A stretch of DNA of 64,000 nucleotides from an uncultured Chloroflexia bacterium (GTDB lineage Bacteria; Chloroflexota; Anaerolineae; Anaerolineales; UBA11579), in contig CAVROH010000013.1 of assembly GCA_963722735.1 (NCBI GenBank), positions 2,942 to 66,941 on the forward strand, in the 5' to 3' direction. The notes beneath the pieces are model-generated. The model saw only the letters and a list, made by a program, of their open reading frames with translations, was not told where the DNA came from and made no database searches. Of this stretch, positions 9,068 to 58,949 are shown piece by piece. A program made the translations under genes and the position numbers. Numbering within the stretch: position 1 is the first letter of the stretch; each line of letters opens with the position of its first letter.

Positions 9068-9094
9068 CTTGCCTCCGTGAGGATTTATATAAAC

Positions 9095-9106
9095 GAACGT
9101 ACGTTC
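9095..9106. promoter_or_regulatory. Perfect palindrome GAACGTACGTTC upstream of TetR operon (TetR operator or LexA box)
   Basis: Seen directly in an AT-rich promoter region about 30 bp upstream of the TetR start. Confidence 0.6.
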
Positions 9107-9179
9107 ATATATTATTTGAAAGTTGATCTGGAGTCAAGAGGGGAAAACCACCCTTTCACCTTTTAGGTGAAAGGGAAGG

Positions 9180-11430: not shown

Positions 11431-11540
11431 TGAATTCCTGCTGGTAGGTGTGGTAATATAATTCAGGCTGAGGCAGATTGCTCTGGTAATCGGCCTGGCC
11501 TGATTTTTTATTGCAGGGAAAAGAAACCATCCAGAAAACC

Positions 11541-12125
11541 ATGAAACTCTTTCCAAAGCTTACAAAGGCAGAAACACTCACTCTGCTGCTGGTGTGCGCC
11601 TTTCCGGTCCACCTCTGGGCGATCATAATCCTGATCTATGATCTGTCCTGGTATCTTCAAAAGCGGAGTTTAGGTTTCTTCCTGGGGGTCTCTGGTTATG
11701 GTCTGGGCTTTGCCATTCTGGAGAGCCTGGTATTCTTTGGATTCATCTATTTGCTCACATTTTTATTTCCCAGGAGTTGGCAGGGGAGCACACCGATAGC
11801 CATTGCCAGTACCGCGGCATTGGTGATCGCTTTTTGGGCGATTATAAATAAGGTGTTCCTGTGGACCTCGGAAATCTCCCCAGCCTGGTTTGAGTGGATC
11901 ATGCTGCGGGCGTATTACCGCCAACCGCAACTCTACCCGATCTTCTGGATCGTCCTGTTGAGTTCAGCGGTCTTCCCGTTCTTTGTCCTGCCGCGCTGGG
12001 GAAAAGGCCAGAAGGGGATGATCGCCCTCACCGAAAAGCTCACCATCCTGGTGCCGATCTATTTACTCTTCGATCTGATCGGGATCGGGGCTGCCATCAC
12101 CCGCGTGATCAGTTACGGTATATAA
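11541..12125 (+). CDS. Hypothetical polytopic membrane protein (sulfatase-associated)
   Basis: About 5 hydrophobic segments; ends 5 bp before the sulfatase-like gene. Confidence 0.7.
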   Translation: MKLFPKLTKAETLTLLLVCAFPVHLWAIIILIYDLSWYLQKRSLGFFLGVSGYGLGFAILESLVFFGFIYLLTFLFPRSWQGSTPIAIASTAALVIAFWAIINKVFLWTSEISPAWFEWIMLRAYYRQPQLYPIFWIVLLSSAVFPFFVLPRWGKGQKGMIALTEKLTILVPIYLLFDLIGIGAAITRVISYGI

Positions 12126-12130
12126 CCAAT

Positions 12131-21496: not shown

Positions 21497-21511
21497 GTTG
21501 AGCCGATACGT

Positions 21512-26761: not shown

Positions 26762-26783
26762 TGGGGCGGGAGAGTAGGCGGAG

Positions 26784-31683: not shown

Positions 31684-32379
31684 GTGAAGATCGCGCGCAT
31701 AAATACAATTGCCCTGGATGGCCCGGCGGCCTCTGGAAAATCCACTGTAGGAGAGCTGGTTGCCAAAGAGCTGGGCTTCCTGTTCTTTGATACCGGGGTG
31801 ATGTACCGGGCGATCACCCTGGCGGCGCTTGAGGCGGGCGTATCTGTATTTGATGAAGCGGGTTGTACCCAATTGGCAAAGGAAACCCAGATCGACGTGC
31901 AGCCCGGCTTCTATGGATGACGGCCGCAAAAATGATATTTTGATCAATGGGGTGGACAAGACCTGGGGCATCCGCACACCGGAAGTGGATGCGAATGTCT
32001 CTGAGGTCTCCACTTATGCGGGCGTGCGCACTGCTCTGACCGCCCAGCAGCGCAAGATCGGTGTGCGCGGGCGGGTGGTCATGGTGGGGCGCGATATCGG
32101 CACGGTGGTGATGCCGGATGCTGCCCTGAAGATCTATCTGGATGCTTCTGCCGAGGAACGTGCCCGCCGCCGGCATGCGGAACGGTGGCCCGCGGTGAAG
32201 AATCGGATTATGAGGAAGTGCTGGCGATCGTGAAGAAACGCGATCAGATCGACTCAAGCCGGGAAGTGGCTCCGCTGTGTGCCGCCGAGGATGCCGTGGT
32301 GATCGATTCGGATCACTTGAGCATTGAAGAAGTATTCGCGCCATGATGGCGTTGATCAGAGGAAGCTGGAATTGGATGA
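31684..32379 (+). CDS. cmk: Cytidylate kinase
   Basis: [29 protein letters not shown] and [12 protein letters not shown]. Confidence 0.93.
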
Positions 32380-36659: not shown

Positions 36660-36911
36660 TCTTAGTCTGGGCAAACTAAAAGCCATTAAATTAAGCAAGC
36701 GAGCGATTGAGAAACAATTCTCAATCCGCTTGCTTCGTTTTGCATGTTTTTGTAGCACATTTGTTCAATGATTGCGTGCCCTAAATTTTTAGGATAAACT
36801 GGATCAGGATTAATATGGAACGGTTGATTATCGAGATTACGGGGATAGCAACAAACAACCAAACAGTTTTCCGGACCTCAGATTTTGCTGTACTCAGGAG
36901 GCATAATTAGT

Positions 36912-41241
<4,330 letters not shown>

Positions 41242-41495: not shown

Positions 41496-41515
41496 TATAA
41501 TATGGAGTTTGTTTG

Positions 41516-44207
41516 ATGGAAATTGGTTTGGTTCGAAAGATCAATATTGATGAGGAGATGCAGCAGGCGTACCTGGATTATGCGATGAGCACGATCGTCT
41601 CGCGTGCCCTGCCGGATGCGCGTGACGGCCTCAAGCCGGTGCACCGCCGAATCCTCTATGCAATGTATGATATGGGCCTGCGCCCGAATACGAGTTACAA
41701 GAAATCGGCCCGCGTGGTGGGTGAGGTGCTGGGTAAGTACCATCCCCACAGTGACGCGGCGGTGTATGATGCCATGGCCCGTATGGCGCAGGACTTTTCT
41801 CTGCGCTACCCGCTGGTGGATGGACAGGGGAACTTCGGCAGCGTGGACGGCGACCCGCCGGCGGCGATGCGCTACACCGAGGCCAAGATGGCCGCCGCCG
41901 CCATGGATATCATGGTCGATATCCAGAAGGATACCGTCGATTTTACCGAGAATTTTGATGCTTCGCTGACAGAACCGAGCGTGCTGCCGGCCACGATCCC
42001 GAACTTACTGGTCAATGGGGCTGTGGGTATTGCGGTGGGGATGTCCACCAGCGTGCCGCCGCACAACCTTGGCGAGGTGGCCGATGCGGTGGTCTATATC
42101 CTGGAGAACTGGAGCAAGGTGGACAAGATCGATGTGGATACGCTGATGCAGTTCATCAAGGGGCCGGATTTTCCCACCGGGGGCGTGATCCTCGGCGGGT
42201 TGAAGGAAGAGGGCGGCCTGGCGAAGGCTTACGGCTCCGGACGGGGACGGATCACAGTGCAGGCGCGGGCGCATGTCGAAGATATGACCCGCGGCCGCCA
42301 GCGGATCATCATCACCGAGCTGCCTTACATGACCAACAAGACCACGCTGATCGAGCGGATCGCCAAACTGGCCCGCGACGGCGTGCTGGAGGGGCTTTCC
42401 GATCTGCGTGATGAAAGCGACCGCCAGGGGATGCGGATCGTGATCGAGCTGACCAAGAACGCCAATACTGACAAGGTGCTGGAGCAGCTCTATAAGCGCA
42501 CCCAGATGCAGACCACCTTCAGCATCATTCTGCTGGCATTGGTGGATGGCGAGCCAAAGATGCTCAGCCTGAAGAATGCCCTGATGGTGTATATCAACCA
42601 CCGGCTGGAGATCATCAGGCGGCGCAGTGAGTATGACCTGGCGCGTGCCCGAAAGCGGCTGCATATCCTTGAAGGGCTGCGGATTGCCCTCGACAATCTG
42701 GATGAGGTCATTGAACTGATCCGGCGCTCACGGTCTGCGGAGACCGCCCATGCCAATCTGAGGAAGACCTACAAGCTCAGCGATGAGCAGGCTACCGCGA
42801 TCCTGGATATGCCTCTGCGGCGGCTGGCCGCCCTGGAGCGCAAGAAGATCGAGGACGAATATAAAGAGGTGCGCCGGCTGATCCAGGATCTGGAGGGCTT
42901 GCTGAAATCCCCCAAGAAGATGCGCAGCGTGGTGGCGGAAGAACTGCTGGAAGTAAAAGAGAAATACGGCGACCGCCGCCGCACCCAGATCATCGAGGTG
43001 GCGGAAGGCGCTAAGATCAAGGATCTGCTGACCGCCAGCGACCTGGTGGAGGAATATACCACCTATGTCAACCTGGACAGCGAGGGACGCATTTCCCGCA
43101 CCCCGGAGGGCAAGGATGCCCGCCTGTGGGGCAGCACGGCTGCCGACCTGGTGCTGGAAGGCAATACCCGCGATACGCTGTATGTCGTCTCGGCCAGCGG
43201 GGAGACCGCCGCGGTGGCGATGCACGCCATCCCTGAAGCTGAACTGGCCGATCAGGGTGTGAGTGTGGCTTCGGTCACCCCGTTTACTGACAAGGTCAAC
43301 GTGAAAGCGATCTTCAGCCTGCCGCCGGAAGCCTTGCAGAATGAAGACTGGTATGTGATGACGGTCTCGAAATATGGGATGGTGAAGAAGAGCGCCCTCA
43401 GCGAGCTGCCCGGCCCGGCTGCCGAGACCTTTGAACTGGCCCGCACCAAACCCGGTGACGAGATCGGCTGGGTGCTGATCACCAATGGGGAGAACGAGGT
43501 TATGCTGGCGACGGCCAATGGGATGGTGATCCGCTTCAGTGAGGACGCCGTGCGCCCGATGGGGCTGATCGCTGCCGGCGTGAACGGGATCAAGCTGAAG
43601 GGCGAGGACGAAGTCATCGGCGCGGCGGTCTTCAATCCGCAGTATGACGTCTTCCTGCTGACCAGCGAGGGGATCGCCAAACGGGTCAAGGCGGACCAGT
43701 TCCCGGTGCAGGGACGTTACGGCCAGGGTGTGATCGGCTGGAAGCTGGATGGGGATGCCCAACTGGTCGGCCTGGCGCAGAACAAGCCGAACTTCGAGGT
43801 CGGGATTCATCTGGCCCGGCTGGCGGCCAAGCGCGTCCGGCTGGATGATGCCAAGCTGCGCGGACGTCCGTCGCAGCGGCAACTCGGTGATCGATAAGTT
43901 GAAGGAAAAGGTCACCCTCGTGACCGTGCCGTGGGAGACGCCGGACGGCCTGCCGGGACCGGAGAAGAAACGCAAAGCGCCAGAAACGCCTACTCTGCCA
44001 GAGCCGCCGAAGGAAAAAGCCAGGCCTAAGGCCAGGAAGAAATCAACGCCGGTAGAGCAGATCAGCATGGATCTGGACACCCCCGCGGCCAAGACGCGGG
44101 CGCGCAAAACCAGCACCCGCAAGGCGAGCACGCGTAAGACGACGACGCGCAAGACCACGACGAAGAAAACCCCGGCGAAGAAGACCAGCACCCGGAAAAA
44201 GAAGTAA
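41516..44207 (+). CDS. gyrA: Type IIA topoisomerase subunit A (GyrA/ParC family; no GyrA-box, so ParC-like) with Lys/Arg/Thr-rich tail
   Basis: [22 protein letters not shown], catalytic [15 protein letters not shown] and beta-pinwheel repeats. Confidence 0.93.
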
Positions 44208-44239
44208 ATGGCGAATAGGGATTTCCGAAGGAGAAAATC

Positions 44240-44901
44240 ATGGGAGTGATCTCAGAACTGTATGGGGATATTCGTTTCATCCTCAAGTATCGCGGCAAGG
44301 TAATGAAAAAGCAGTTGGCGCTGAACAAAGCTGCGCCCAAGGCTGGTGATCTGGCCCCGGATTTTACCCTGTATGATATTTCGGGGACAGCATCGGTGAC
44401 CTTATCCGAATTCCGCGGTAAAAAGCCGGTTGCACTGGTATTCGGGAGTTTTACCTGACCGCCGTATGTCCGGGGTACCGTGAGTATCCAGAAACTTTAT
44501 CAAGAATATCATCAGGAAGTGCAATTCCTGAGCATTTATATCCGTGAAGCCCATCCGATCGACGGCTGGTGGCTGGGACGGCGGCTGACGAAGAAGGTGA
44601 TGTATAAGATGGCCCCGAAGGTCTCGGATGGCGCATTATGATCCGAAAACCATCGAGGAGCGCCGGGCTGTCGCCGGGGAATGTGAAACCGCCCTCCAGT
44701 ATGGGATTAGGACCTATGTGGACGAGATGGACGACTTTGTAAACGATTCTTACGCCGCCTGGCCGACGCGTTTATATCTTATCGGCCTGGATGGCAAAGT
44801 GGAATATGCGGGCGGGCTGGGCCCGTATCGATTTCAAGCCGGCGAAACTGAAAGCAGCGATCGACCGGTATCTGGCTGGATTGAACCAAGAATTGAATTA
44901 G
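44240..44901 (+). CDS. Iodothyronine-deiodinase-like thioredoxin-fold selenoprotein (UGA 44456-44458 = Sec)
   Basis: APDFTL..KPVALVFGSFT-UGA-PPY..FLSIYIREAHPIDGW..VDEMDD..YAAWPTRLYLIG..GKVEYAGGLGP matches DIO motifs; the frame is continuous across the UGA. Confidence 0.88.
44473..44489 (+). promoter_or_regulatory. Candidate bacterial SECIS hairpin
   Basis: GGGUAC-CGUGA-GUAUCC; the loop starts 20 nt after the UGA with G at loop position 2. Confidence 0.6.
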
Positions 44902-45067
44902 ATCCTGAATCTATTCAGCAAACGAAAATCCTGTTCTGCATTGAAAGATGGCCAGAACGGGATTTTCTTATTCTCCAAGCATCACAATTATCATATTTTG
45001 TCTGATTTCTATGGTTCTGCCCCGAGAGTATAATCATTGAAAATAAATCAGCAATGGGATAGGGATC

Positions 45068-45319
45068 ATGGCAATTCAGCGGTTTTTTGCTCGGAGACGA
45101 TATCGACGATTTCAACGGCAGGCGCGCGAGCGAATCGTGCTGGCAATCATCCTGGGCATCTTCATCCTGAACTTCTGCCTGTGCTTTGGATTGGGCTTGG
45201 TCACCACCGCCCTGCAGCAGATCGGGATTTTGCCGACACCCACGCCCACGCCGGTAGAAGTGGAGACTCAGGTGCAGGGGGTGGTTCTCCACCTAAAACA
45301 GATGTATCTAAAGACATAA
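45068..45319 (+). CDS. Small single-pass membrane protein
   Basis: Arg-rich N-terminus, TM segment, then PTPTPTP linker. Confidence 0.55.
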   Translation: MAIQRFFARRRYRRFQRQARERIVLAIILGIFILNFCLCFGLGLVTTALQQIGILPTPTPTPVEVETQVQGVVLHLKQMYLKT

Positions 45320-45330
45320 AAAAGGCGGGC

Positions 45331-45355
45331 GTCCTTCCCGCACAAGCGGGAATCC
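45331..45355. repeat. REP-like palindrome, same family as 5317-5392
   Basis: GTCCTTCCCGCacaaGCGGGAATCC. Confidence 0.65.
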
Positions 45356-45500
45356 ATCAAGTAAAAGAGTGCAGGTAGGGAAAAATCCACCGTGGAAAAT
45401 GAGAGGAGAATGCCCCAGGCTTGAACGAAGTGAACGCGGTACGTTAAGGTGCCATTGCCGGTCAACCCCCTTGAATCTGTAAATCAACTTTTTAAAAAGT

Positions 45501-45553: not shown

Positions 45554-46118
45554 CTATCCCCCCGCCAGCCCCAATTCCTCGGCGATCCCCTGCATCGCCT
45601 CCAGCACGTTGCCGACATGCTCCCATTTCTCCACCCCAAAGGCTTCGATCGCTGCGTCCATCTCGTCCCGGTTGGCGCCGGCGGCAAAGCTGGGCACCTT
45701 CCACTTCTTCATGCACCGATTTGACCTCCACATCCCGGATGTCTTTGGAGGGGCGCACCAGGGCGGTGGCGGTGATCAGGCCGGTCAGCTCGTCACACGC
45801 CGCCAGCGCCTTGCGCAGGGGGGTATCCCGCGGCACGCCGGTATGGTCGGCATGCGAGAGGATATCCTCGATGATCTCTTCCTCGATGCCGCGCTCCCGC
45901 AGGATCGGGGCGCCGGCTTGGGGGTGGCGTTCCAGGTCGGGGTGGATCTCCCAGTCGAAGTCGTGCAGCAGGGCGACCAGTCCCCAGCGCTCCTCATCTT
46001 CGCCCAGCTTGCGGGCATACCAGCGCACCGCGGCTTCCACCGCCAGCATGTGCCGCACCAGGCTCTCATTTTTCACATATTCCCGCACGATGGCAAGCGC
46101 TTCTTCTCGGGTGGTCAT
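45554..46118 (-). CDS. HD-domain (HDIG) metal-dependent phosphohydrolase
   Basis: RHMLAVE, LLHDFDWE, RHP, ILSHAD and ACDELTG. Confidence 0.88.
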
Positions 46119-46752
46119 GGCTGGGTTCCCTCCTGGTACAGAGTCGGCGTATTCGCTGGTGTCTGGCGGGGAGATATAGATCTCGATGAAGGCCAGCACG
46201 GTCGCCAGCGTCTCCCGGATATTCCATGCGATCCTGGAGCCGAGCCAGTACATGCCGTGATGGGCAGCCACGCCGGTGGCTTCGATCCCCAATGAGCGGC
46301 ACAGGAACAGCGTCCGCGGCAGGTGATACGGCTGGGTGACGAAGATCGCTTCGTCCAGGCCCAGCTGGGTGTGGGCGTTGTAGCAGGTGGCATAGGTGCG
46401 GATCCCGCCGTCATCCAGGAGGATGTCTTCCTCAGGGACACCGTGCTCAACGGCATACGTCGCGCATGATCGCCGGCTCGGGGTTGCGTCCGGACATCAC
46501 CAGCTGATCTACCACACCGGCCTGGTACAGTTCGACGCCGCGGTCAAGCCGGTCTCGCAATACCGCCGATGGCTTGCCGTTGATCGTCTCAGCCGCCAGC
46601 ACGATCCCGATGGGGGTGTGGCCGGCTTCCTCGATGGTGGTAGTGTACCCGCGGGCGATCGTTGTGGTGATCATCCGGGGGATCACCGCCAGCACCGCCA
46701 GGATCACAATCCCGCGGTAGATGGAGGTGAGGATCGGTTTACGTTTGCGCAT
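46115..46752 (-). CDS. SanA/YdcF (DUF218) family protein
   Basis: N-terminal TM; LRDRLDRGVELYQAG, MSG, DDGGIRTYATC, FVTQPYHLPR and RETLA. Confidence 0.82.
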
Positions 46753-46783: not shown

Positions 46784-47477
46784 TTAGAAATACACCCGTT
46801 CAATGCCCATTACATATTTTGAACTTTTCGTGACCCGGAAAGGGAAAAATCCGGCGACATGGTTGGCTTCCACATCTTCGTCTTTCCCGTATTTCAGCTC
46901 GACGATGATATTGCGGAGGTCGCTTTGTGAGTGGATGAAGCGGTTTTCAAAGTGCGCCCACCCGGTAATACGAGAGATCGGTATCTACCGTCAGGCGGAA
47001 GCGATTATCGTGGGTGGCAAAGTAGTGGCGGAAATAGCGGTTGAGCAGCACGATCTGTTGGGTAAGGAGCACCAGTTTTATATCCTCCGGCAGGTCTGGA
47101 TGGTTGGCAAATTGGCGCAGTTCTCTGGTGTTGTAGCCTTCATCCAGGGTGAACCCGTCCAAGCGGATAGAGCCGTTTGGTACCGACCAGGCCGCGCTTG
47201 ATCTTGAATTCCAGGGTGGATTTGTCGATCTTGACCAAAAAGGGGACCATACCAACGCAGGCGGACCTTACGCCGATCAGCCGCCCCGCTGACATTGTCA
47301 TCATAGTTATCCATGTCCGGGGTATCCAGGTAGAAGTTATTGATGTAGCGGGGCGGATACGGCTGATAGAACAGGTAAGGATGGCGTTTGATCAGCGCGA
47401 TCGCCTGGTGATGTTCAAACTGATTGACCAGGAATTTCCGCTCATAGCGATAAGAGCGCGGGTTCGCTTTCAGCCAT
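46784..47477 (-). CDS. VTC-domain (polyphosphate polymerase, CYTH-like) protein
   Basis: RYERKF, NNFYLDT, RRKVRLRWYG, LEFKIKRG, RFRLTVDTDL, IVELKY and SKY across frameshifts. Confidence 0.85.
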
Positions 47478-47479
47478 GG

Positions 47480-48874
47480 TTACCAGATGCCTTTGTTATC
47501 CAGGAAGGAGATCTGCATCGCAGGAGAGAGGGATTGCAAGATCAGCTTTGGCCTGGCTGAGGTCTGAGAGTTTTTTGAACTCGATCACAAAGGATGATTC
47601 CTGAGCACATCGGCGGTCTCATCAAAACGGAGCAGCTTGATCTTTGAGCAGTGTTTCTCCAGGATAGCAGTGATCTGGTCCATATCAACCTTGTCCGGGG
47701 CTTTGCTGGATACGGTCAGGTGCAGGTTGACATCTGCTTTGGTGTTGCGAAAGATCCTTCAGCAGGCCCATGATGGCAATTGCCACTACCAGGGTCAGCA
47801 ATGTGATCAGTCGCTGGTTATCGCCGAGTCCGATACCGAGGCTGATGGCGAAAAATAGATAGGCTAATTCTTCGGGTTCTTTGACAGCCGCACGGAAGCG
47901 GACGATGGAGAGGGCGCCGACCAGACCAAGGGACAGGGCCACCGAGGAGCGTACCACCAGGATGATAAAGGTGGTGGTGATGGTGAGGAGCATGAAGTTG
48001 GCGGCAAATGCCCGCCGGTTGGAGAGGGAGGTGCCCCAAAAGATATATACCCGGCCAAGGATGAAAGAGCAGATTGCTGCCAGGAGGAGATTGATCAGGA
48101 AGGTGCTCAATTCCAGCTGGTTGGATTGGCTGGATATTAGCTCTTCTATCAGGGAGAGCTTTTCACTGCCGGTGGAATCTGTCTGGATGGGTGGAGAGTC
48201 ATTTGCCGGAATATTTCCGGGGAACGGCTCTTCTGGGGTAGGGCCTTCTTCAAGCGGTCCTTCACCTTCCGGCATGGGGCCTTCCGCTGGGGTGCCGCTC
48301 AGACTGATCGAGTCGATCTCTGCGCCGGTCTCGCCGAAGACGTGGAGTATGAAACCTCCACCGGAGAGCGGTTGATCATCGGTGACGGTGAGGACCTGAG
48401 TATCATTGAGAGATAATCGTATGTGTTACCGTTTTCCACCTTTATATTGATCTTATTCCAGCTTTCGACGCTAAGGTATTCAACTGGTGATTCACCTAAC
48501 TGGGAGGGCTGTTCATCACTGATCCTCTCGAGGATGATGTGGTTGTCTAGCAGGATGAGAGCGTTGTGCGCCCCTTCCTGCGTGTTGTAATTCACAATGA
48601 TCTCATTGGGAGACTCGAAGCGCAGGGTGATTGTCAGGTCTATGTTGGACCAGCTGCCCATGACGGAGGATGAAATTACCTGCCGCCCATTTTGAGGACG
48701 CCGTTTTCCACAGTAAGATCCTGGGAGCGTTCCCATTCCTCCCAATTCACATCGTCAAATTCCTCGGTGAATTCTGAGGCTCCTTCCTGGGCGAAGCCCA
48801 GATCGACTGGAACCAGGCAGATAGCTGCAACCAGCGTCAGGGCGATTAAAAGTCTGATTATATTTAGATTTCAT
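47480..48874 (-). CDS. DUF4956 membrane protein with extra N-terminal extracytoplasmic beta-sandwich domain
   Basis: VALSLGLVGALSIVRFRAAVKEPEELAYLFFAISLGIGLG; N-terminal signal/TM, beta-rich domain and Pro/Glu linker. Confidence 0.8.
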
Positions 48875-48884
48875 GTTTTCCTCC

Positions 48885-50559
48885 TCACTTATGGAACCGG
48901 GGTGAGATTCTCTTGAATAAATTGGCTGCGATCTCCGGCGAACTCCGCCAGTTGCAGCCATCCGTTTTCAAATTCGTTGTAGTTCTGAACCAGGCGGTTT
49001 CACCGAAGAAAGCTTTGTCTCCGGTGGACTGGCTGACATAGGGTGCAATAAGCTGATGGTGGTTGGCTGATTGCTGATAGATGTTTTCGTAATTGAACCA
49101 TTGTCTGGAGAGCAGATCGACGTAAGCAGCAAATTTCTGCCGGTAGCGCGGGACTTTGAAGATATTCTCGGTGAGTGGGGCGCGCTCCATCAGCCCGAAG
49201 CCTTCGATCTCATACAGGGGCATACTGGGATCTCCGCCCCAGGTCTGATCCCAAGGGATCCATTCAAAGCGGTTGGTGCCGGGGTTGTTGTAAAGATAGA
49301 AGTTATTGCCAGTATAGGGATAATAGTCCCAGCTGGATACGGTGACCATGACGGCCATGTAACGCAGGAAGCTGTCAACATTGAAGACGGCCTCCAGATG
49401 CTTGGGCAAAGTCTTCGGGGGTGTTATAGCTGGCGCCATCAATGATATAGGCCAACTGGATCACATCTGAATAATCATTTTCTTCTTCGTTGGTCATTTT
49501 ACCGTAGGCGTACTGGCCGTTCTGGGTCGGGTAGCCGGTGATATCTGGTCCGTAGTAGATCAGGTCCATCGGGCCACGCTGGGCATGGCTGGCCTTGTAC
49601 AGGTTGCCGTTACGGTTGTCGTTTCCAAAGCGGCTGGCGAGGAATTTGCGGTCAACGCGCTCGATGAGGGTGTACACACCCCAAAATTCAGCTGGCTGTG
49701 TATCATCGGTGAAGTCGATCCACATTTCAGCGAAGCTAGCGAAGCTGGCCGGTACACCGGCAAAGTTGAGCATGTCATAGGTCATCTTTTCCTGGATGAT
49801 GTTGCGTCGCCGATGCTGTTAATGAACATGAACTGCTTGAGGTTGTGGAATTCCTGCCCGTCAACGTAGTAATCGGTGTCAATCTTGAATGGTTTCTTTT
49901 CCCCGGATTCGCGCAGAGAGAACTGCCCGCGGAAGCGCAGTCCAACATCATTGAGACGCTCTCCGAAAATGACAGCATTGGCGGGTACAGTTGTCTTGGC
50001 TTCAGGATCCTGCCACATCAGGGCCCAGTTCTCTTCGGTGATCTCGATAGCAACCCGGCCTACCTTGCTGTCATCAAAAACTGACCAGTAGTCCACACTG
50101 GCAGAGCCTGGGATGGCGGACATAGACCCACAGGTTGTCGGTGGTGGTGCGCCCGCTGCTGTCTATCACCCGCAGGGTGACCTGGTATTCTCCTGGTTTG
50201 GCGTAATAGTAGGAGGTGTATCCGCCGGTGGAGGTGGCGTCGGTGTCGTAGATGCCGTTTCCGTCAAGATCCCACTCGTAACGGGTGATCTCTCCCGTGG
50301 TGGATGAGCTGCCAAAGGCGCTGAAGTAGACTTTCATTGGCGCCCAGCCCTGATGGGGCATGGCATTGGCTTGGGCAGTCACACTGCTTGCCGCGCTTAC
50401 TTCTATGTTCTCGGCGGAGAGGAAATTTGGACTTATCAGAAGCAGGAGAATGCTGGCGGCGATGAAGATTCCGACAAGTACCCTTTCAGCGATCCGGAAC
50501 CATTCAAAGTTGTGGCCCTTCCTGGATACTTGCATTTTGATATTCTTTTTCAAGTTCAA
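48885..50559 (-). CDS. CotH-family kinase with N-terminal TM and PKD domain
   Basis: PKD YEWDLDGNG..Y..PGEYQVTLRV; CotH GLRFRGQFS..KKPFKID, GVYTLIERVD, GNLYK and WDYY..NNFYLY..WIPWD. Confidence 0.88.
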
Positions 50560-50621
50560 CTGGCGAGTAGTGATTTGATTATAGCAATTTCAGGTTAGCG
50601 AGGCAACTCTCAGGGAAAATT

Positions 50622-50653
50622 AAAAAGACCCGGCAGGTTCTCGCCGGGTCTTT
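50622..50653 (-). terminator. Terminator after phnE
   Basis: AAAAGACCCGGC-aggttctc-GCCGGGTCTTT. Confidence 0.75.
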
Positions 50654-50671: not shown

Positions 50672-52511
50672 TTAGACAAACCGCTCGCGCAGGCTGGAGG
50701 AAATGTAATCCATGCTGGCAACCACGACAGCGATCGCCAGCATGTTAACGCTGGCCGCCCGGTAGTTGAGCAGGTTGACATTCTGCTGCAGCACAAAGCC
50801 GATACCACCACCACCGACGAAACCGATGATCGTGGACATACGCACGTTGATATCCCAGCGGTACATGGTAAAGGAGATGTACGGCGGGATGATCTGCGGC
50901 ACAACCGCGAAGACGATCGTCTGCAGCCGGTTAGCCCCGGTGGCTGTTACGGCTTCCAGCGGCCCTTCCATGATGCTTTCTACCTGTTCTGAGTAAAGCT
51001 TGGACAGGGCAGCAATGGTGTGCAGGCCAAGGGCGAGCGCACCGGCGAAAGGTCCTAGACCGACCCAGGTAACGAAGACAATCGCCATCACCAGGGCTTC
51101 GATAGAGCGTGTGCCGTTCAAGATCGTGCGGATGATCGCGTAAATGACCATCCCGATCGGGAGAGATTGCTTCGGTGCCACCAGAAGTGCCAGGGCAAGC
51201 CCGATCACAGCGCCGATTCCTGCCGGCCACCAAATGGTGACTGCCGGGTTATTGAACTGGTAGAACCAGTCGATGCCTTGCATGACCAGAACGGCCACAA
51301 TACGCCGTCGCAATCGGTGTGATCACCAGATTGAGTATCTTGGCGGCCTGCGGCTGATTTTGTCACTGATGTTCTGTCCGATATTGCCAAGTAACCCGCC
51401 GATAATCCCGCCAAACGCCAGGGCTGTGATTGCAGGTACCATCATGACGATCAAGTCGCCGATCTGCTGAATAAACCGCCGCAGGAAGTACAGGGGCACG
51501 TCTTCAGAGGGGTCAGCGCAACACCGATCTCGGACAGCAATTGACCAAGGAGCAAGGCTGAGAAGATTACTAGCAAAAGGGCTACCAATGTGAAGAGCAA
51601 GGTCAGCAGCCGGTCGCTAAAGGTGATCTCTTTATCGTCGTCCTGTTTGGAGAGTCCCCATCGAATGAACAGGAAGGTCAGAATTGGGAAGAGGATTGAT
51701 CCTCCGACCAGTACCAAGCAGGTTGGAGAACAGGGGATTTGCCAGACTGATGGCCAATTGTGCGGATTGAATTCCCAGCCACATGCCGAGGGGCCAACCG
51801 ATCAGCGAGAGGGCGATGTTGCTCAATGGCAGCTTGATATCGGACATCAGGTTGCGGGCAGCAAAGAAACTGATCGGGATGGCGATCAAAGTACCGAAGG
51901 TGGTGGCCAGCAAAGCCATGAAGACAGTCTCAACGATCTTATCCCAGGTGACTTTGCTTTCCCTGGAGATCATCGGCGCGCCAACTTTCACCCTGCCGGT
52001 GACCGAATCGCCTGGGCTTCCTCTTTTATGGTCCGGTTGGGTATCTTGAGTTCCTCTGTAAAGCTGCCATTGGCATCCACCTGGAAATTCTCCATCTGGA
52101 TGGGAACGCCATCCGGCGCTTCGGCACTGAAACCAATGAAGTTGATCGGGCCAGAAGAATTTGACTGGAAGTTGTATCCTTCGATAGTGATGGTTTCGCC
52201 GGGTTCTGCACAACCAGCGCTCGGTCAGGATGAATGGACCGAAGCGGTCAACGTCTGGTACATCGACGCCACCTTCAGGGCAGCCAAGGTAGAAGGGGAT
52301 TTCAACATCGGTTTCTTCATAATTGTAATCCACCAGTTTGGGGTGGGCCAGCGCCCGCAGGATGCGGGTAAGTGAAGCGAGCCGTTTTTCAGAGCGGGAT
52401 TCCTCAAAATCTACCCTGGTGACATTGAAACCGTAGGCCAGCACTATCAGGACAACCAGGGTAGATGAGACCAACACTAGCAGATCGTAAGAGAGAAGGT
52501 TTCTTTTTCAT
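50672..52511 (-). CDS. phnE: Phosphate/phosphonate ABC permease PhnE/PtxC-like, oversized
   Basis: ETVFMALLATTFG, GLGPFAGALAL, KLYSEQVE and RWDINVRMSTIIGFVGGGGIG. Confidence 0.85.
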
Positions 52512-52521
52512 GGTATCCTCC

Positions 52522-53283
52522 TTAGCCTACCCTTTCAGCGTCTTTGCCGTAGATTTCTCTGAACTTATCATCGTCAATGTCTTCTGGTTTTCCGTCAAAC
52601 ATGAGGATGCCGTCATTGAGGGCGATGGCCCGGTCAGCATAGCGGTGTACCAGGTCGAGGAAGTGGAGGCTGCACAGGATGGTCACGCCGTCTTCCTTAT
52701 TGATCTTTTCCAGGTACTGCATGATCGAGTGGGCCAGGACAGGGTCGAGGCTGGCAACCGGTTCATCCGCCAGGATCATCATCGGTTCCTGCATCATTGC
52801 CCGGGCGATGCCGACGCGCTGCTGCTGCCCGCCGCTGAGTTCGTCGGCCCGCTTGTAGGCCTGTTCCTTGATGCCGACCCGGTCGAGCTGTGCCAGGGCG
52901 TTGTCAACATCTTCCTTGGGGAACCTGTTGATGGCGCTCATGATCGGGCTGACATATCCAAGCCGACCTGATAACACATTGGTGATCACCTTGGAACGGG
53001 AGACAAGGTTGAAATGCTGGAAAACCATGCCGATCTTGCGGCGAATGCGCCGCATCTCGTCCTGGCTGGCGGCAGTGACGTCCTGCCCATCCCAGATGAT
53101 CTGTCCCCCGGTAGGTTCGATCAGCCGGTTGATGCAGCGCAGCAAGGTGGATTTCCCGGAACCGCTCAAACCGATCACAGCCAGGAACTCCCCTTGTTCG
53201 ACATTGAAGCTGACACCCTTGAGGGCCTGGACTCCTCCGTCATAGGTTTTCGATAGATTTTTGACTTCTAACATAGATGCCAT
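52522..53283 (-). CDS. phnC: Phosphonate ABC ATP-binding protein
   Basis: [31 protein letters not shown] and [10 protein letters not shown]. Confidence 0.92.
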
Positions 53284-53362
53284 TCCGCCTTTCTTAGGAA
53301 TATTCGCAAATCGTGGGGAATACGCTATAAAATGATAAATAAAATGATTATGCCGAATTAAA

Positions 53363-53392
53363 ATCATGCCCCAGGATATTCTGGGGCATGAT
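53363..53392. terminator. Intergenic hairpin between phnD and phnC
   Basis: ATCATGCCCCAG-gatatt-CTGGGGCATGAT. Confidence 0.6.
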
Positions 53393-53428
53393 CAGGTCAA
53401 GCTTCATTAGTGTTAGAACTTCGAGCAA

Positions 53429-54577
53429 CTACTCGCCGAGGTTCTCGAGGGTGATGCCTTGCTGGGCAACCAGGATGCGGACGCCATCGAAGTTTTCGTC
53501 AGCGATGGTGTCAACTGCGGTCCAGTTGTAGAAGGCTTCAGCACACAGGGATTGGACACAGGCTTCGTTGTCGAGGGACACGAAAGCGATCATTGCATCA
53601 ATGATGCCCTGCTTCATCTCATCCGGGAAATCGGGGGAGAAGGACATGGTGTCATTCGGGATTTCCTTGGAGAGGGTCAGGATGCGGACTTTCTGAACGA
53701 TGTCAGGGGCGTCCGTGGTGACTGCTGCACGGGCATCCAGCACGCGGTATTCACCGCAGTACAGTTTACCATCTTCGTTCGGGGCGCAGTCTTCAACAAC
53801 CTCATCTGGAACATCCGGGGCCATATCGACGGTCCAATTGCCTTCCGGCAGGAGCGGGGCGCTGAAGTAAGCGGTGGATACATCGGCATCGCCATTGTAG
53901 ACTGCCAGCACGGACTGCGGGTGGCCGCCAGCTTCAACGGTCTCACCAACCTCAACACCCAGATCTGCGAAGATCGAGGAGGGGTAGAGGAAGCCAGAGG
54001 TGGAGCCTGCATCCGGGTATGCCCAGGTGGCGCCGGCGAGGTCTTCCAGGGTCTGATATTCACTGTCGCGGGCAACGTAGAAGCCGGTCCAGTAAATGTT
54101 CCAGCCATAGCGCACGGAGGCCAGGCCAGGTTCAACACCACAGAGCTGGTTGGCCAGCACGTAACCGAGGGCGGGGATGAAGCCGATGGTGTCCTCAGGA
54201 GAGGCGCACATTTCCTCGATGGTGGCGGCGTAGGAGGTCGGCACGCTGACTTCGAAGACGTAGCCAGTGGCGTCCTGCAGAGCCTGGGCGATCAGGTCAC
54301 CGGATTCGATCATGAAATCTACGTCCACGGAGGGGACGAAGAGGACTTTGACCGGGTATTCGGCGGAGCCAAGCATCGGGTCCGGTTCTTCCATCGGTTC
54401 CTCTGCCGGTTCTTCTACTGGTTCTTCGACGGGCTCTTCAGCCGGTTCTTCCATTGGTTCTTCCATTGGTTCTTCGGCGGGTTCATTCGCAGGGGTATTT
54501 GTGGAACCACATGCAGACAGAACCAGCGCGGCGATAACCAGAAGACCCAAAACTACAAACAGTTTGTTGAACTTCAT
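53429..54577 (-). CDS. phnD: Phosphate/phosphite/phosphonate ABC substrate-binding lipoprotein
   Basis: Lipobox LSAC; (EEPx)n linker; PTSYAATIE, DAGSTSGFLYP, GGHPQSVLAV and IPND. Confidence 0.88.
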   Translation of the reverse strand: MKFNKLFVVLGLLVIAALVLSACGSTNTPANEPAEEPMEEPMEEPAEEPVEEPVEEPAEEPMEEPDPMLGSAEYPVKVLFVPSVDVDFMIESGDLIAQALQDATGYVFEVSVPTSYAATIEEMCASPEDTIGFIPALGYVLANQLCGVEPGLASVRYGWNIYWTGFYVARDSEYQTLEDLAGATWAYPDAGSTSGFLYPSSIFADLGVEVGETVEAGGHPQSVLAVYNGDADVSTAYFSAPLLPEGNWTVDMAPDVPDEVVEDCAPNEDGKLYCGEYRVLDARAAVTTDAPDIVQKVRILTLSKEIPNDTMSFSPDFPDEMKQGIIDAMIAFVSLDNEACVQSLCAEAFYNWTAVDTIADENFDGVRILVAQQGITLENLGE

Positions 54578-54806
54578 TTCTTCTCCTTATCTAAAGATCG
54601 TTTGTGGTATACAGGCGTATACCTTTAATGGGTTTATACTCAATTTTACCCCAGATTGTTTGGGTTTCAAGTTTTTTTAAGGTATGTGATTTGCTTATCA
54701 ATCAGATGGCTGAATGCAACAAATTATGGTTTCTGGCACGATTATACCTGGGTTTCTATCCGGTTACAGCTTGCGGCAGGCTGGATCAGACGTTAGAATC
54801 AGCCCT

Positions 54807-56111
54807 ATGAAGGAAATTAACAATTATCAGCAGGCATTGGATTTTTTATTCTCATTTGTGGATTTCAGCCTGACCCACCAGGAGCAAATTGCCCCGGAGC
54901 AGTTTGAACTGGAGCGAATGTTCCAGTTGATGGAATTGCTTGGCAATCCGCAGGAAAGCTTTGCGGCGATCCATATTGCCGGCACCAAGGGGAAGGGCTC
55001 GGTGGCAGCGCATTGTGCGGCGGCGATGCAGGCAGCGGGTCTGCGGACGGGGCTGTACACTTCTCCGCACCTTTCGGACTTCCGGGAGCGGATCCAGGTG
55101 GATGGTGAGATGATCCCGGAGGAGGATTTTGTGGCCGGGATGCAGGTTTTACAGGAGGCTGCCCCAAAGCTGCCGGGCGTGACCTCGTATGAGCTGCAGA
55201 CCGCGCTGGCTTTCTGGTATTTTTCCCGGGCAGGGGTGGATGGGCTGCTGTGGAGGTGGGGATGGGCGGGCGGCTGGATTCTACCAATATCCTCACGCCG
55301 CGGGTCTCGGTGATCACCAATATCTCCTATGACCATACCGCCATCCTGGGGGATACGTTGCCGAAGATCGCTGCCGAGAAGTGTGGGATCATCAAGCAAG
55401 GTGTGCCGGTCGTCTCTGCTCCGCAGGAACTGGACGCTTTGATAGTGATCCAGCAGATCGCCGCTGAGAAGGGGGCGGATCTGACCATGGTGGGTGCGCA
55501 TCTGCGGGTTGAAACTCTGACCAGACTGACCTGGCGGGGCAGGATTTTCGCATCATCTGACGGGGAAGAGGAAAAAGCAATTCTCCACCCGGCTGCTAGG
55601 TCCGCACCAGGTGGAGAATGCAGTGACGGCCTATGCTGCGCTGAACTGCTCCGGCCTGGAGATCTCTGATGAAGCCATCCGGGCTGGGTTTGGCAGGGTG
55701 CAGTGGCCGGGGCGGTTTGAGGTCTTTCCCGGCGCGCCGGTGATCGTGCTGGATGGGGCGCATAACCGCCAGTCGGCCCGACGGCTGGCAGAGACTGTGC
55801 GGGAACATTTCCCCGGGAAGAAGGCTGGCGATGATCTTTGGCGCTTCGGAGGATAAGGATATCGCCGGGATATTTGCCGAATTGCTCCCTCTGGCAGCCG
55901 GATTGGTGCTGTATCAGGCAAACCATCCCCGGGCGGCCAGCAGCGAGGATCTGGATGGTCTGCTGGAGGATTTTGACGGTGAAGTGCAGGTCGCTGGGTG
56001 AGGCTGAAGAGGCCTTTGCCGCAGCTGCACGAGATGGCCGGGGAGGACGGGGTGGTGCTGGTGACCGGCAGTTTGTACCTGGTGGGCGAATTGCGCCGGG
56101 AATTGGTCTAA
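54807..56111 (+). CDS. folC: Folylpolyglutamate synthase/dihydrofolate synthase
   Basis: HIAGTKGKGS, YTSPHL, EVGMGGRLDSTN, WPGRFE, LDGAHN and TGSLYLVGE. Confidence 0.93.
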
Positions 56112-56155: not shown

Positions 56156-58692
56156 ATGAACGATCAAGACTGGTATTCTCAAATTGAAGGCGCTCTGAAC
56201 ACCGAGGAACTGCACCAACGGGCCGAACAACTTGAGAATATCCCCAATATTCAGACCGGATGAAGAAGGGATCATCTTTTGTCCGATCCTGCCGCTGCGC
56301 GAGGTGATCGTCTTCCCGCATATGGTGGTGCCGCTGCCCGTTGGGCGTTCTGGCACAATGGAGGCGATCGAGGCTGCCAACCAGCAGGATCAGGTGATGA
56401 TCGCCATCCCCCAGCGCAACCCGCGCAAACATTCAGTCCAGAAGAAGGATTTTTTGCCGGTTGGCGTGCTCTCGGCGGTAAGTGATATGTTCTCCACCGG
56501 GCAGAGTGATAATCTGGTGATCGTTCAGGGGCGCTTCAGGGTGGAATTGATCGAGATCGTGCGCGACCATGCTGTGCTGTATGCCAAAGCGCGGGTGGTG
56601 GAAGAGCGCATGCGCCCTTCCCAGCAGGATACTGCCCTGATGCGCAATCTGATGCGTTTGTTCAAGCGCTATGCCGAACTGACCCGCTCGATCCCGGATG
56701 AGGCGCTGGATTATTTGATCGAGATTGACGAGCCCGGCTGGCTGGCGGATATGCTGACCAACTCGTTCTCTGTGCATCTGGATGACCGGCATGAACTGCT
56801 GCTGAGCCTGGACCCGACCGATCGGCTGGAGAAGGTCAATAACCTGCTGATCCGGGAATTGGGCGTGCTGGAACTTGAAGATGAACTGCATGCCAAAGTG
56901 CAGGATGAGGTGGAACGCGGCCAGCGGGAGAATTATCTGCGCGAGCAGATGCGCGTGATCCAGCGCGAGTTGGGTGAGCAGGACCCGTGGAGCAAAGAAC
57001 TCCAGGAGCTGCATAATCACGATCAAAGAGGCCGAACTGCCCGAAGCAGGCAGAAGAAGCCGCCATGAAGGAATTTGAACGCCTGTATCAGATGCCGCCG
57101 ATGTCGCCGGAAGTGGGCGTGATCCGCACCTATATTGACTGGATCCTCGAACTGCCGTGGACGAATATGACCGAAGACAACCTGGATGTAACCCATGCTA
57201 TTGAGGTGCTGGAAGAGAACCATTACGGCCTGGAAAAGCCCAAGGACCGCATCCTGGAATCGATTGCCATCCGCAGCCTGAAACCGGGTAAGACCCGGCA
57301 GCCGATCCTGTGCTTTATCGGCCCGCCCGGGACCGGGAAAGACCACCCTGGGCAAGTCGATCGCTGAGGCGATGGGGCGCAAATTTGTGCGCATCTCGCT
57401 GGGCGGGGTGCGGGATGAGGCCGAAATGCGCGGCCACCGGCGCACCTATATCGGGGCGCTGCCGGGACGGATCATCCAGACGATGAAACGCGCCGAGACG
57501 CTGAACCCGGTCTTTATCCTGGATGAGGTCGATAAGCTGGGCGTGGGTTACCGTGGCGATCCGGCGGCGGCGCTGCTGGAAGTGCTGGACCCGGAGCAGA
57601 ACCAGGAATTCTCCGACCATTATCTGGAGATTGCCTACGATCTTTCCAAGGTGCTGTTCATCACCACAGCCAACGACCGCAGCGATATCCCCTGGGCGCT
57701 GCTGGACCGGATGGAAGTGGTCGAGTTCCCCGGCTATATTGAGGAAGAAAAGGTCGAGATCGCCAAGAAGTTCCTCATCTCCCGCCAGCTGGAAGAATCC
57801 GGGCTGGAGGAGGGTGAGCTGAGCTTCACCGAGAAGGCCATCCGCCGGATCATCAATGAATATACCTATGAGGCCGGGGTACGCAACCTGGAGCGCGAGA
57901 TCGGACGGGTGTGCCGCAAGGTGGCCCGCCTGAAAGCAGAAAAGAAGGCCTTCCCGGCCAGGATCGGGGACACTGTGCTTGAGAAGTATCTTGGCCCGCC
58001 GGAATATTCGGCCACGGATGTGGAGACCGAGGACCAGGTGGGTGTGGCCACCAGTATTGCCTGGACGATGGCAGGCGGCGATATTATGCCGATTGAAGTC
58101 GCTCTGACCGAAGGTAAGGGAAATTTGCAGATCACCGGCCAGATCGGCGAGGTGATGCAGGAATCGGCTCAGGCGGCTATGACCTACCTGAAATCCCGGG
58201 CGAAGAGATTTGGGATTAAAGAGTGATGTATTTGAGGGTGTGGATGTGCACATCCATGTACCGGAGGGCGCGATCCCCAAGGATGGCCCCAGTGCGGGAA
58301 TCACCCTGGCAACAGCAATGATCTCGGCATTTACCGGGCGCAAGGTGCGCAAGGATGTCTGCATGACCGGTGAGGTCACCCTGCGGGGGCGGGTGCTGCC
58401 GATCGGCGGGGTGCGCAATAAGGTGTTGGCGGCGCACCGCAATGGCCTGAAGATGGTGCTGCTCCCAAGCCGCAATGAGAAAGACCTGATGGATGTGCCC
58501 AAGAAGGTGAAATCCGACCTGAAGCTGATATTTGTCAAACAGATGGACGATGTGCTGGATGCGGCTTTGCTGCCCGCTGAGGAGAAACCCAAGAAAGACA
58601 AAAAGGCTTCCAAAAAGGACCAGCCTGCGGCGGTGAAATCAGCCAAGCAGGTCTCGGATGAGACCCAGCCGCCGGCCTCGGCTGGGGTCTAG
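56156..58692 (+). CDS. lon: ATP-dependent protease La
   Basis: [30 protein letters not shown] and catalytic PKDGPSAG...GGVRNK. Confidence 0.96.
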
Positions 58693-58777: not shown

Positions 58778-58865
58778 GGAGAGGTGCCAGAGTGGACGAT
58801 CGGGGCGGTCTCGAAAACCGTTGTGGCCTTCCGGGCCACCGTGGGTTCGAATCCCACCCTCTCCG
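58778..58865 (+). tRNA. tRNA-Ser(CGA)
   Basis: Acceptor GGAGAGG/CCTCTCC, anticodon arm GCGGT-CTCGAAA-ACCGT, long variable arm GTGGCC-ttccg-GGCCAC, T-loop GTTCGAATC. Confidence 0.95.
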
Positions 58866-58949
58866 CAGAGATTGAACGTTGAGAGAAATACCCTCGGGTA
58901 CCATTGGTTGAATACGACGAACTGTTGCGCGGGGTTACCCTCTCTTTTT

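Follow-up and report, generated by a model that had tools for sequence, protein, structure and literature searches.

The closest described systems to the locus reported here come from Gram-positive bacteria. In streptococci and clostridia, Whitfield et al. (2020; PMC7112168) described an accessory group directly adjoining pelDEADAFG that consists of genes for a CotH-like kinase, a poly-phosphate polymerase, DUF4956, and DUF4832; in bifidobacteria a diguanylate cyclase/phosphodiesterase (DGC/PDE) takes the place of DUF4832. A set consisting of VTC, membrane protein, and CotH genes beside a chitin-synthase-like gene is listed for Clostridium perfringens NELoc-2 by Lepp et al. (2010; PMC2879425). 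We have analyzed 64,000 nucleotides (nt) of an uncultured Chloroflexia bacterium (contig CAVROH010000013.1, positions 2,942 to 66,941), and this whole stretch is called the window below. On its minus strand, genes of the CotH, DUF4956, and VTC families lie in that order within positions 46784-50559. The window operon is the known, biochemically uncharacterized triad in a stand-alone form, with extra ecto-domains and outside Pel loci. An earlier annotation made from the DNA letters (hereafter the sequence-only reading) stated that no characterization of the triad was known; this is incorrect, since the triad has been described as the Pel accessory group and mutant phenotypes have been reported for it (PMC7112168, PMC12345266).

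The mutants are deletions of the Streptococcus intermedius genes SIR_1592 (DUF4956), SIR_1593 (VTC), and SIR_1594 (CotH). According to that paper (mBio 2025, PMC12345266), every mutant remains able to aggregate, and in artificial sputum aggregation is reduced by more than 50% when either DUF4956 or CotH is deleted; synteny of the triad is stated not to be found outside Pel loci. Other mentions of the triad families in the literature are rows of transcriptome tables, and a literature search, with most subscription journals outside it, found no biochemistry of bacterial VTC or DUF4956 proteins, or of the use of polyphosphate (polyP) by CotH.

The window resembles the Pel accessory group in having the same three Pfam families contiguous on one strand: CotH is secreted or anchored, DUF4956 combines a membrane part with a soluble C-terminal domain, and VTC is soluble. 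It differs in that neither the window nor any of 12 Chloroflexi-type loci has a pel, DUF4832, or glycosyltransferase (GT) family GT1, GT2, or GT4 gene within about 7 kb, in that its CotH carries PKD where the Pel-group CotH carries FN3, and in that its DUF4956 protein has an additional N-terminal DUF1080-like ecto-domain. NELoc-2 (PMC2879425) is similar in that its VTC genes, for proteins of about 230 amino acids (aa), are each followed by a gene for a cytoplasmic-membrane protein of about 225 aa, with CotH after them and a glycosyltransferase gene alongside; it differs in belonging to a Firmicute, in having two copies of the VTC/membrane pair, and in lying near a polysaccharide synthase gene. 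Both NELoc-2 membrane proteins are listed as 'tubulin/FtsZ-like' and may correspond to DUF4956.

In order to survey the triad across bacteria, one genome per GTDB species was scanned using a VTC alignment as the query, and the best 80 of at least 531 relatives were analyzed. Genes were called with hidden Markov models (HMMs) built from the loci, with examples checked by Pfam, and a locus was counted as a triad when all three genes were present within 8 kb. The full triad was found in 65 of the 80 VTC-anchored loci. Thirteen of the 15 incomplete loci end at a contig edge within 2.6 kb upstream of VTC, and among the 67 loci with full flanks only two are missing a partner. In one of these, L066 (8929-10690), the neighbors of VTC are genes for a CYTH-domain protein and a 1579-aa beta-helix/T9SS protein, and both DUF4956 and CotH are absent; in the other, L069 (3810-10678, Gammaproteobacteria), CotH is present twice, and a PMT_2 membrane protein occupies the place expected for DUF4956. 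The gene order is CotH-DUF4956-VTC in 51 loci, DUF4956-CotH-VTC in 13, and DUF4956-VTC-CotH in one. The triad loci are distributed among Chloroflexota, Acidimicrobiia, Bacteroidota, Planctomycetota, Omnitrophota, Gemmatimonadota, Acidobacteriota, Spirochaetales, and Parcubacteria. There was no fourth conserved gene, as no other flank family occurs in more than nine of the 80 loci. The triad is a conserved module widespread across phyla, and this gene-neighborhood survey, which the sequence-only reading had proposed as a check, strongly bears out the co-occurrence of the three families. The triad is also common outside Pel loci, which contradicts the statement of PMC12345266. In two Saprospiraceae loci, L072 (10773-17687) and L078 (10788-17816), three further CotH-like paralogues lie directly downstream of a DUF4956-CotH-VTC core.

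Two types of genomic context were distinguished. Around the Chloroflexi-type triads the neighbors are unrelated genes: Pel, GT1/2/4, and DUF4832 had no Pfam match among 117 ORFs (open reading frames) between 30.7 and 64 kb of the window, and these families and Wzx/Wzy had none among 95 ORFs within about 7 kb in the 12 Chloroflexi-type loci with full flanks. In seven of ten non-Chloroflexi loci, the triad is inside a polysaccharide (Wzx/Wzy/GT) cluster, with families such as Wzy_C, Polysacc_synt, GT1/GT2/GT4, Wzz/GNVR, Bac_transf, and sugar-nucleotide enzymes. Together with the Pel association and the mutant phenotypes (PMC12345266), these clusters link the triad to surface polymers. In the Planctomycetota metagenome-assembled genome (MAG) locus L038 (6848-10421), a cytidylyltransferase-phosphoenolpyruvate mutase fusion, a thiamine pyrophosphate-dependent decarboxylase, and an Fe-alcohol dehydrogenase lie immediately 3' of the triad, and this phosphonate biosynthesis set hints at phosphorus-decorated surface glycans.

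Families, strand, and order of the window genes were determined by Pfam on stop-to-stop fragments, and positions of all features are collected in Table 1. The nearest intact relative found for the triad is L023, an Anaerolineales MAG, and its intact proteins were used as the reference for frameshift-aware protein-to-DNA alignment against the window. Gene 1 aligns end to end with the 547-aa CotH protein at 83% identity (window span 50535-48892, 4 frameshifts), gene 2 end to end with the 463-aa DUF4956 protein at 74% (48874-47483, 8 frameshifts), and gene 3 with residues 3-229 of the VTC protein at 81% (47470-46787, 3 frameshifts). The ORF listing gives TTG at 50559 as an alternative start of gene 1. 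The CotH-DUF4956 spacer is 14 nt, with GGAGG inside, and the DUF4956-VTC gap is 2 nt. The three tightly spaced genes of the sequence-only reading are thus present as to families, strand, order, and spacing, but none of them is an open reading frame, and its observation is only partly confirmed because the frames are broken by frameshifts, through all of which its translation ran without remark.

The longest ORF of codon table 11 in 46784-50559 has 196 aa with a start codon and 246 aa from stop to stop. Relative to L023, the triad contains at least 15 single-base frameshifts (4+8+3) and probably 16, which is about 4 per kb in 3.75 kb; the sixteenth is likely because the conserved YRYERKF stretch is not read in the frame set by the VTC start codon ATG 47477. 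This density, compared with only one shift in 2.7 kb (0.4 per kb) in gyrA (41513-44198), is what could be expected of decaying pseudogenes, and the lengthening of ORFs when TGA is read as sense could suggest a host with an unusual code or with reading by frameshifting. We regard either as highly improbable. The frameshift-aware alignment has no in-frame stop, and the window copy keeps 24 of 24 VTC invariants, 28 of 28 DUF4956 invariants, and both CotH aspartates, 54 checked residues in all. When compared with L023 proteins, rpoC has 9 shifts in 3.68 kb (2.4 per kb) at 92% identity and the Mur ligase gene has 7 in 1.36 kb (5.1 per kb), while Pfam matches split rpoC into at least 6 pieces, lon into 3, and cmk into 2. 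Since gyrA has a single shift and other genes have dense ones, the density of errors varies widely across the window, from 0.4 to 5 per kb. Single-base insertions make up 27 of the 34 shifts that were mapped, and the shifts are not linked to homopolymers (41% of shifts versus a background of 43%). TGA recoding was rejected, as reading TGA as sense lengthens ORFs in all six frames, many of them overlapping, as expected at 55-60% GC; frame tracking by GC content at third codon positions was too noisy for use. Because no in-frame stops occur, the invariants are kept, and the essential rpoC is frameshifted in the same manner, the triad most likely consists of functional genes seen through an indel-rich assembly, rather than of decayed genes. 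The genes are ordinary members of their families, and annotation of the window can be trusted only after polishing of the sequence.

The VTC assignment of gene 3 is clear at the family level. The window fragments match Pfam PF09359 with E-values of 7.5e-11 and 0.0019 (42.5 bits versus a 23-bit cut-off), and intact orthologues give 84 and 78.6 bits over profile positions 2-235. Gene 3 encodes the VTC domain alone, with no hydrophobic segment, and bacterial orthologues have 229-243 aa. When the bacterial VTC profile was searched against PDB, the Vtc2 and Vtc4 catalytic domains were matched with E-values from 5e-8 to 6e-5. In the yeast studies, the residues critical for polyP synthesis are K200, R264, R266, K281, Y359, R361, S457, and K458, with E426 binding Mn (bioRxiv 10.1101/2023.01.27.525886; PMC9911596), and K458 is the sole such position that is replaced, by I or L, in the inactive Vtc2 and Vtc3 (bioRxiv 10.1101/2023.01.27.525886). 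We mapped these residues by HMMER alignment to 5iig_A and 3g3q_A, with the +3 offset of chain 5iig_A corrected. In L023 numbering the eight critical residues correspond to K14, R72, R74, K91, Y147, R149, S218, and K219; each of them is the same in 73 of 73 bacterial sequences and is also present in the window. The suggestion that the VTC protein is of the polyP-polymerase type is strengthened by these residues, the K458 equivalent included, and the bacterial protein probably makes polyP at the inner face of the membrane.

Coupling of VTC to DUF4956 had also been proposed, and natural gene fusions support it. A search of 7,563 candidate proteins with lengths of 437-2000 aa gave 7 matches at E <= 1e-5. 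Five clusters (P0055-P0059) join DUF4956 (residues 31-133) to VTC (residues 261-479) in a single chain of 486-491 aa; they have complete catalytic motifs and come from contigs of up to 823 kb. Stop and start codons of adjacent DUF4956 and VTC genes are also close together, the distance being between -11 and +2 nt at 24 of 52 junctions. The CotH-VTC fusion P0053, a single-member cluster on a short contig with an Arg-rich junction resembling read-through, and the PKD-CotH-VTC-fragment P0054, also a single-member cluster on a short contig, were set aside as probable artefacts. P0001 (86% identical, DUF4956 plus VTC, 305 aa) was not used, because it resembles a frameshift artefact in a close relative.

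Comparison with the yeast VTC complex (PDB 7ytj, 8i6v, 3g3q) shows likeness in the VTC domain of the triphosphate-tunnel (TTM) type with the eight equivalent residues, predicted on the cytoplasmic side, and in the tethering of this catalytic domain to a membrane protein, in some bacteria by fusion. The bacterial VTC proteins differ from yeast in the absence of both the SPX domain and the C-terminal domain of three transmembrane (TM) segments (3-TM, DUF202), and the fusions carry DUF4956, not DUF202. The bacterial membrane partner is DUF4956, with about five hydrophobic segments and a soluble domain, in place of the DUF202 3-TM units, and no sequence similarity is detectable between the membrane parts. 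The bacterial set, known here from sequence, also adds a third partner, a predicted extracytoplasmic kinase.

The DUF4956 match in the window is 50.5 bits versus a cut-off of 30.6 bits (Pfam PF16316, E = 2.7e-13). The product of gene 2 begins with a signal peptide and a lectin-like ecto-domain (about 200 aa), which a Pro-rich linker connects to a membrane core and a soluble C-terminal domain; by hydropathy, the core has about five hydrophobic segments and the soluble domain has about 85 aa. In the L001 and L004 orthologues the ecto-domain matches 3keto-disac_hyd/DUF1080 in Pfam (1e-8 and 8e-8, respectively). The core contains the invariant motif S.ALSLGLVGALSI.RFR.A.K...EL.Y...G.G.G, and the window keeps all 28 positions that are invariant in the family. 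If the N-terminal domain is outside, the positive-inside rule would assign both the C-terminal domain and the invariant R-F-R...K-E-P-E-E loop to the cytoplasmic side, and this is the topology that we infer. The family is large, with 6,067 clusters at 50% identity for E <= 0.001 and 912 for E <= 1e-30. Its members mostly have about 226 aa, and the long form of the window type (at least 440 aa) is found in 15 of the best 150.

In gene 1, a hydrophobic N-terminal segment precedes a PKD domain (Pfam PKD_4 4.1e-12, PKD 5.3e-09), in agreement with the membrane-anchored PKD-CotH protein of the sequence-only reading, and PDB sequence matches to the PKD region of the L023 orthologue are collagenase PKD domains. 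The CotH fragments of the window score 49 and 78.4 bits (E = 8e-13 and 9e-22), above the gathering score of Pfam PF08757, and intact orthologues score 197.5 and 186.1 bits over profile positions 2-322. The L023 protein matches the Bacillus subtilis CotH chain 5jd9_A with E = 3.8e-12. The catalytic and metal-binding aspartates of that protein are D228 and D251 (PMC7821199). Their equivalents are on the SWD and IPWD motifs, D224 and D247 in chain 5jd9_A being likewise 23 residues apart, and both are present in the window, with codons ending at 49326 and 49248. An N-terminal hydrophobic anchor is present in 59 of 64 CotH proteins of related loci. Since basic residues precede the anchor in the five N-termini inspected, an N-in orientation is likely, and this suggests that the kinase domain faces outwards. 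CotH proteins are about 860-890 aa long in the loci of polysaccharide clusters, and some copies have a beta-helix region. The window protein shares its Pfam family and both catalytic aspartates with Bacillus CotH (PDB 5jd9/5jda), which, however, is soluble and acts on CotB and CotG in coat assembly, whereas the window protein is anchored, has PKD, and is predicted to face outwards. The claim that CotH proteins act outside the cytoplasm is consistent with the present operon but not with the Bacillus protein, which acts in the mother cell.

Taking these data together, we tentatively favor a membrane-coupled polyP synthase combined with an ecto-kinase that acts on a surface polymer, and we hold this with somewhat less than even confidence. 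The soluble VTC protein would sit on the cytoplasmic face of DUF4956, beside the invariant basic R-F-R...K loop, and would polymerize phosphate from ATP in the manner of Vtc4; DUF4956, probably as an oligomer, would pass the product or a signal across the membrane; and the membrane-anchored CotH ecto-kinase, acting with ecto-domains of the carbohydrate type (PKD, DUF1080-like, beta-helix), would phosphorylate or otherwise modify a polymer of the cell surface, for which a polysaccharide or a protein is most likely. The least secure step is the export of polyP and its use by CotH as the donor. An extended form of this model appears distinctly unlikely to us. It is a eukaryote-like second route of polyP in many bacteria, in which a Vtc4-type polymerase is docked or fused to the unrelated membrane protein DUF4956, the chain is exported, and CotH uses polyP as an ATP-independent donor in phosphorylating exopolysaccharides or surface proteins. 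Such a full polyP-donor system for self-contained extracytoplasmic phosphorylation could be plugged into polysaccharide loci or stand alone as in Chloroflexi.

Several observations weigh against the favored model. According to PMC12345266, Pel of S. intermedius is up in the DUF4956 mutant and down in the CotH mutant, and no change in aggregation or Pel is reported there for the VTC mutant. With no effect reported for the VTC mutant and opposite effects for the other two, a linear chain from VTC through DUF4956 to CotH is hard to fit, and the simple supply of polyP to CotH assumed by the sequence-only reading loses ground accordingly. As the 80 loci are those most similar to the Chloroflexi query, the rate of co-occurrence may be lower in distant relatives. 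In 19 loci CotH was called by the iterated HMM alone (E from 1e-97 to 1e-127), and Pfam confirmed six of the nine such calls that were scanned, leaving L073, L076, and the L072 paralogue (10773-13349) uncalled at 1e-4. For E426, the likely equivalent was assigned by inference only, as the invariant E192-x-K194 (VVELKY) in a stretch that HMMER aligned unreliably. The literature search of limited coverage described above found no bacterial VTC protein shown to make polyP. At the sequence level, DUF4956 does not significantly resemble the VTC channel domain or any protein of solved structure: its profile, when searched against PDB (7ytj and 8i6v included), matched no VTC protein at E <= 10 and gave chance matches at E 0.7-3. 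The sole faint likeness of DUF4956 is to MgtC, with Pfam E-values of 0.07 and 1.7, and MgtC is known as a regulator rather than as a channel.

The strict supply chain of the sequence-only reading, in which DUF4956 is a polyP channel like the TM domains of Vtc1/3/4 and CotH takes the exported polyP instead of ATP as its phosphoryl donor or attaches it to surface substrates, would fit the conserved catalytic residues of VTC, with the K458 equivalent among them, the parallel between DUF4956-VTC fusions and the TTM-TM fusion in Vtc4, and the predicted position of CotH outside the membrane, where ATP is scarce. The invariant R/R/K in the predicted cytoplasmic loop of DUF4956 also recalls the yeast channel, which is lined by basic residues (PMC9911596). 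We nevertheless consider it unlikely. DUF4956 shows no similarity to DUF202/Vtc1, since DUF202 is absent among its Pfam matches at E <= 10, the above PDB search gave no VTC match, and hhalign against E. coli YidH (DUF202) gave a probability of 1%; the architecture of about five hydrophobic segments plus a soluble domain is also different from that of a 3-TM unit, and the idea of a VTC-type membrane channel is not upheld by these data. In addition, no CotH-family kinase is known to use polyP, the literature search of limited coverage found none, and in S. intermedius a phenotype is reported for the CotH mutant and none for the VTC mutant (PMC12345266). On the unlikely side as well is a regulatory arrangement without export, in which DUF4956 is an MgtC/ACT-like regulator or sensor that controls the tethered VTC protein or is controlled by it, the product of the VTC protein stays in the cytoplasm, and CotH is a coordinated ecto-kinase using ATP. 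This agrees with the opposite Pel phenotypes of the DUF4956 and CotH mutants and the lack of a reported one for the VTC mutant. The authors of the S. intermedius study describe its DUF4956 protein as joining a TM domain of MgtC type to an ACT domain (PMC12345266), and the lectin-like ecto-domain of Chloroflexi DUF4956 could be the sensor. DUF4956 resembles MgtC/SapB proteins (E. coli YhiD, Salmonella MgtC) in having a TM bundle of about five helices followed by a small soluble C-terminal domain, and hhalign against a profile of 28 MgtC sequences found a collinear, though weak, match (7.4% over 132 columns; 5% against YhiD alone). However, this similarity is below every significance threshold applied, with MgtC PF02308 giving 9.5 and 13.9 bits on DUF4956 versus a cut-off of 31.4 bits, and the MgtC-like description of PMC12345266 could not be confirmed by Pfam or hhalign. 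The invariant motif of DUF4956 is absent in MgtC, and MgtC genes are not linked to VTC or CotH genes. The regulatory arrangement also leaves unexplained an invariant, membrane-tethered TTM protein of the polymerase type with the Vtc4-specific lysine, and it does not solve the supply of the phosphoryl donor for the ecto-kinase.

It is also conceivable, though we judge it very unlikely, that the VTC protein is a triphosphate-tunnel enzyme of a different kind, for instance a triphosphatase or an enzyme that modifies nucleotides, and that the polyP reading has been carried over from annotation. TTM/CYTH enzymes share the basic tunnel and catalyze diverse reactions according to PMC4641920, the similarity to Vtc4 at the sequence level is weak (E 1e-6 to 1e-8), and the VTC gene of L066 is paired with a CYTH-domain gene in place of DUF4956 and CotH. 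Against this explanation, none of the eight alignable residues on which polyP synthesis critically depends varies, and one of them is the K458 equivalent, the sole position that separates active Vtc4 from inactive Vtc2/3.

Synthesis of polyP in bacteria is attributed to PPK1 and PPK2, and the source of the phosphoryl donor for kinases outside the cytoplasmic membrane is an old puzzle. If the favored model is true, a membrane-coupled VTC-type polymerase in many phyla would be a new route of polyP synthesis and possibly of its export, and it would give an answer to the donor puzzle. Since the triad is tied to Pel and Wzx/Wzy loci and affects aggregation in S. intermedius (PMC12345266), its chemistry could explain modification of matrix polymers. 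New here are the commonness of the triad outside Pel loci, the natural DUF4956-VTC fusions, and the invariance of polymerase-specific residues; because of these three findings together, the hypothesis can be tested directly in cultivable orthologues such as Pelolinea submarina (L060).

Table 1. Positions of the triad and of other features in the 64,000-nt window.
Feature	Position	Strand	Basis or remark
Gene 1, PKD-CotH kinase with membrane anchor	48889..50535	-	about 548 codons; ATG 50535, TAA 48891-48889
Gene 1 frameshifts	near 50112, 49798, 49398, 48985	-	L023 alignment
Gene 1 N-terminal part: short N-terminus, single hydrophobic anchor, PKD domain	50077..50535	-	translation, Pfam
CotH kinase domain	48889..50162	-	Pfam CotH profile positions 49-153 and 156-312
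Gene 2, DUF4956 protein	47480..48874	-	about 464 codons; ATG 48874, TAA 47482-47480
Gene 2 frameshifts	near 48862, 48681, 48662, 48424, 48414, 47756, 47601, 47540	-	L023 alignment
DUF4956 membrane core	47823..48100	-	hydropathy and invariant motif, alignment A2 of 73 sequences
Gene 3, stand-alone VTC (triphosphate-tunnel) domain	46784..47477	-	about 230 codons; ATG 47477, TAA 46786-46784
Gene 3 frameshifts	near 47233, 47157, 46958, and, from the frame of the ATG, a probable fourth just past it	-	L023 alignment
Promoter-like site 5' of gene 1: TTGCCT, 17-nt spacer, TATAAT, TG preceding -10	50578..50606	-	consensus scan, 10/12 matches
Terminator-like hairpin 3' of phnE-like gene	50624..50653	-	12 pairs, 7 G-C, T-rich tail; consensus scan only
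Phosphonate/phosphite-type ABC importer 5' of triad, same strand	50675-54586	-	PhnD 53432-54586, PhnC 52525-53391, PhnE-type 50675-51322 and upstream pieces
DUF218 (SanA/YdcF-like) gene, then HD-domain gene	45560-46751	-	DUF218 start 32 nt past VTC stop
rpoC, indel-broken	36849-41178	+	
Mur ligase gene, indel-broken	54743-56105	+	
lon, indel-broken	56199-58689	+	
cmk, indel-broken	31802-32343	+	
Ser/Thr kinase gene, indel-broken	350-1326	+	3 pieces
Sulfatase gene, indel-broken	11894-13139	+	2 pieces
PMT_2/PMT proteins	19807-20673, 21705-23072	+	
DUF2298 paralogues	24582-26306 (frameshifted), 26778-28867	+	

The triad is flanked by other minus-strand genes in the window. A phosphorus importer as the immediate 5' neighbor is suggestive, but a conserved link to the PhnD/C/E genes or to the DUF218 and HD neighbors was rejected, since these neighbors are common to L023 only (1 of 80 loci) and terminator-like and promoter-like sites lie between phnE and CotH. 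The terminator-like hairpin at 50624..50653 would part the Phn transporter from the triad. Promoter-like sites in the region number 6, with the one at 50578..50606 as the best match, versus 3.9 expected from shuffles, which is weak evidence obtained by the consensus scan only. On the other side, a terminator-like hairpin is present at 45341-45325, after the HD-domain gene, and none is found between VTC and DUF218, so that a transcription unit of five genes is possible in this lineage; the VTC-DUF218-HD arrangement is shared by L023 alone.

A cluster of genes for large membrane proteins of the glycosyltransferase-C type is found on the plus strand at 19807-28867, about 18 kb from the triad, with strongly negative AT skew, and it may be a surface glycosylation locus. 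In the region of about 1.3 kb between gyrA and the HD-domain gene (44200-45500), ORFs of at least 100 aa gave no Pfam match, and the PIG-V-like gene that adjoins gyrA in L023 was undetectable in the window. A single ORF of 606 codons at 7316-9133 on the minus strand contains TetR_N (residues 43-87) and an ABC-2 permease (251-598), and it may be two genes joined by a stop-removing indel. The only RNA gene in the window, as searched by Rfam and ARAGORN, is a tRNA-Ser gene (anticodon CGA) at 58778-58866 on the plus strand.

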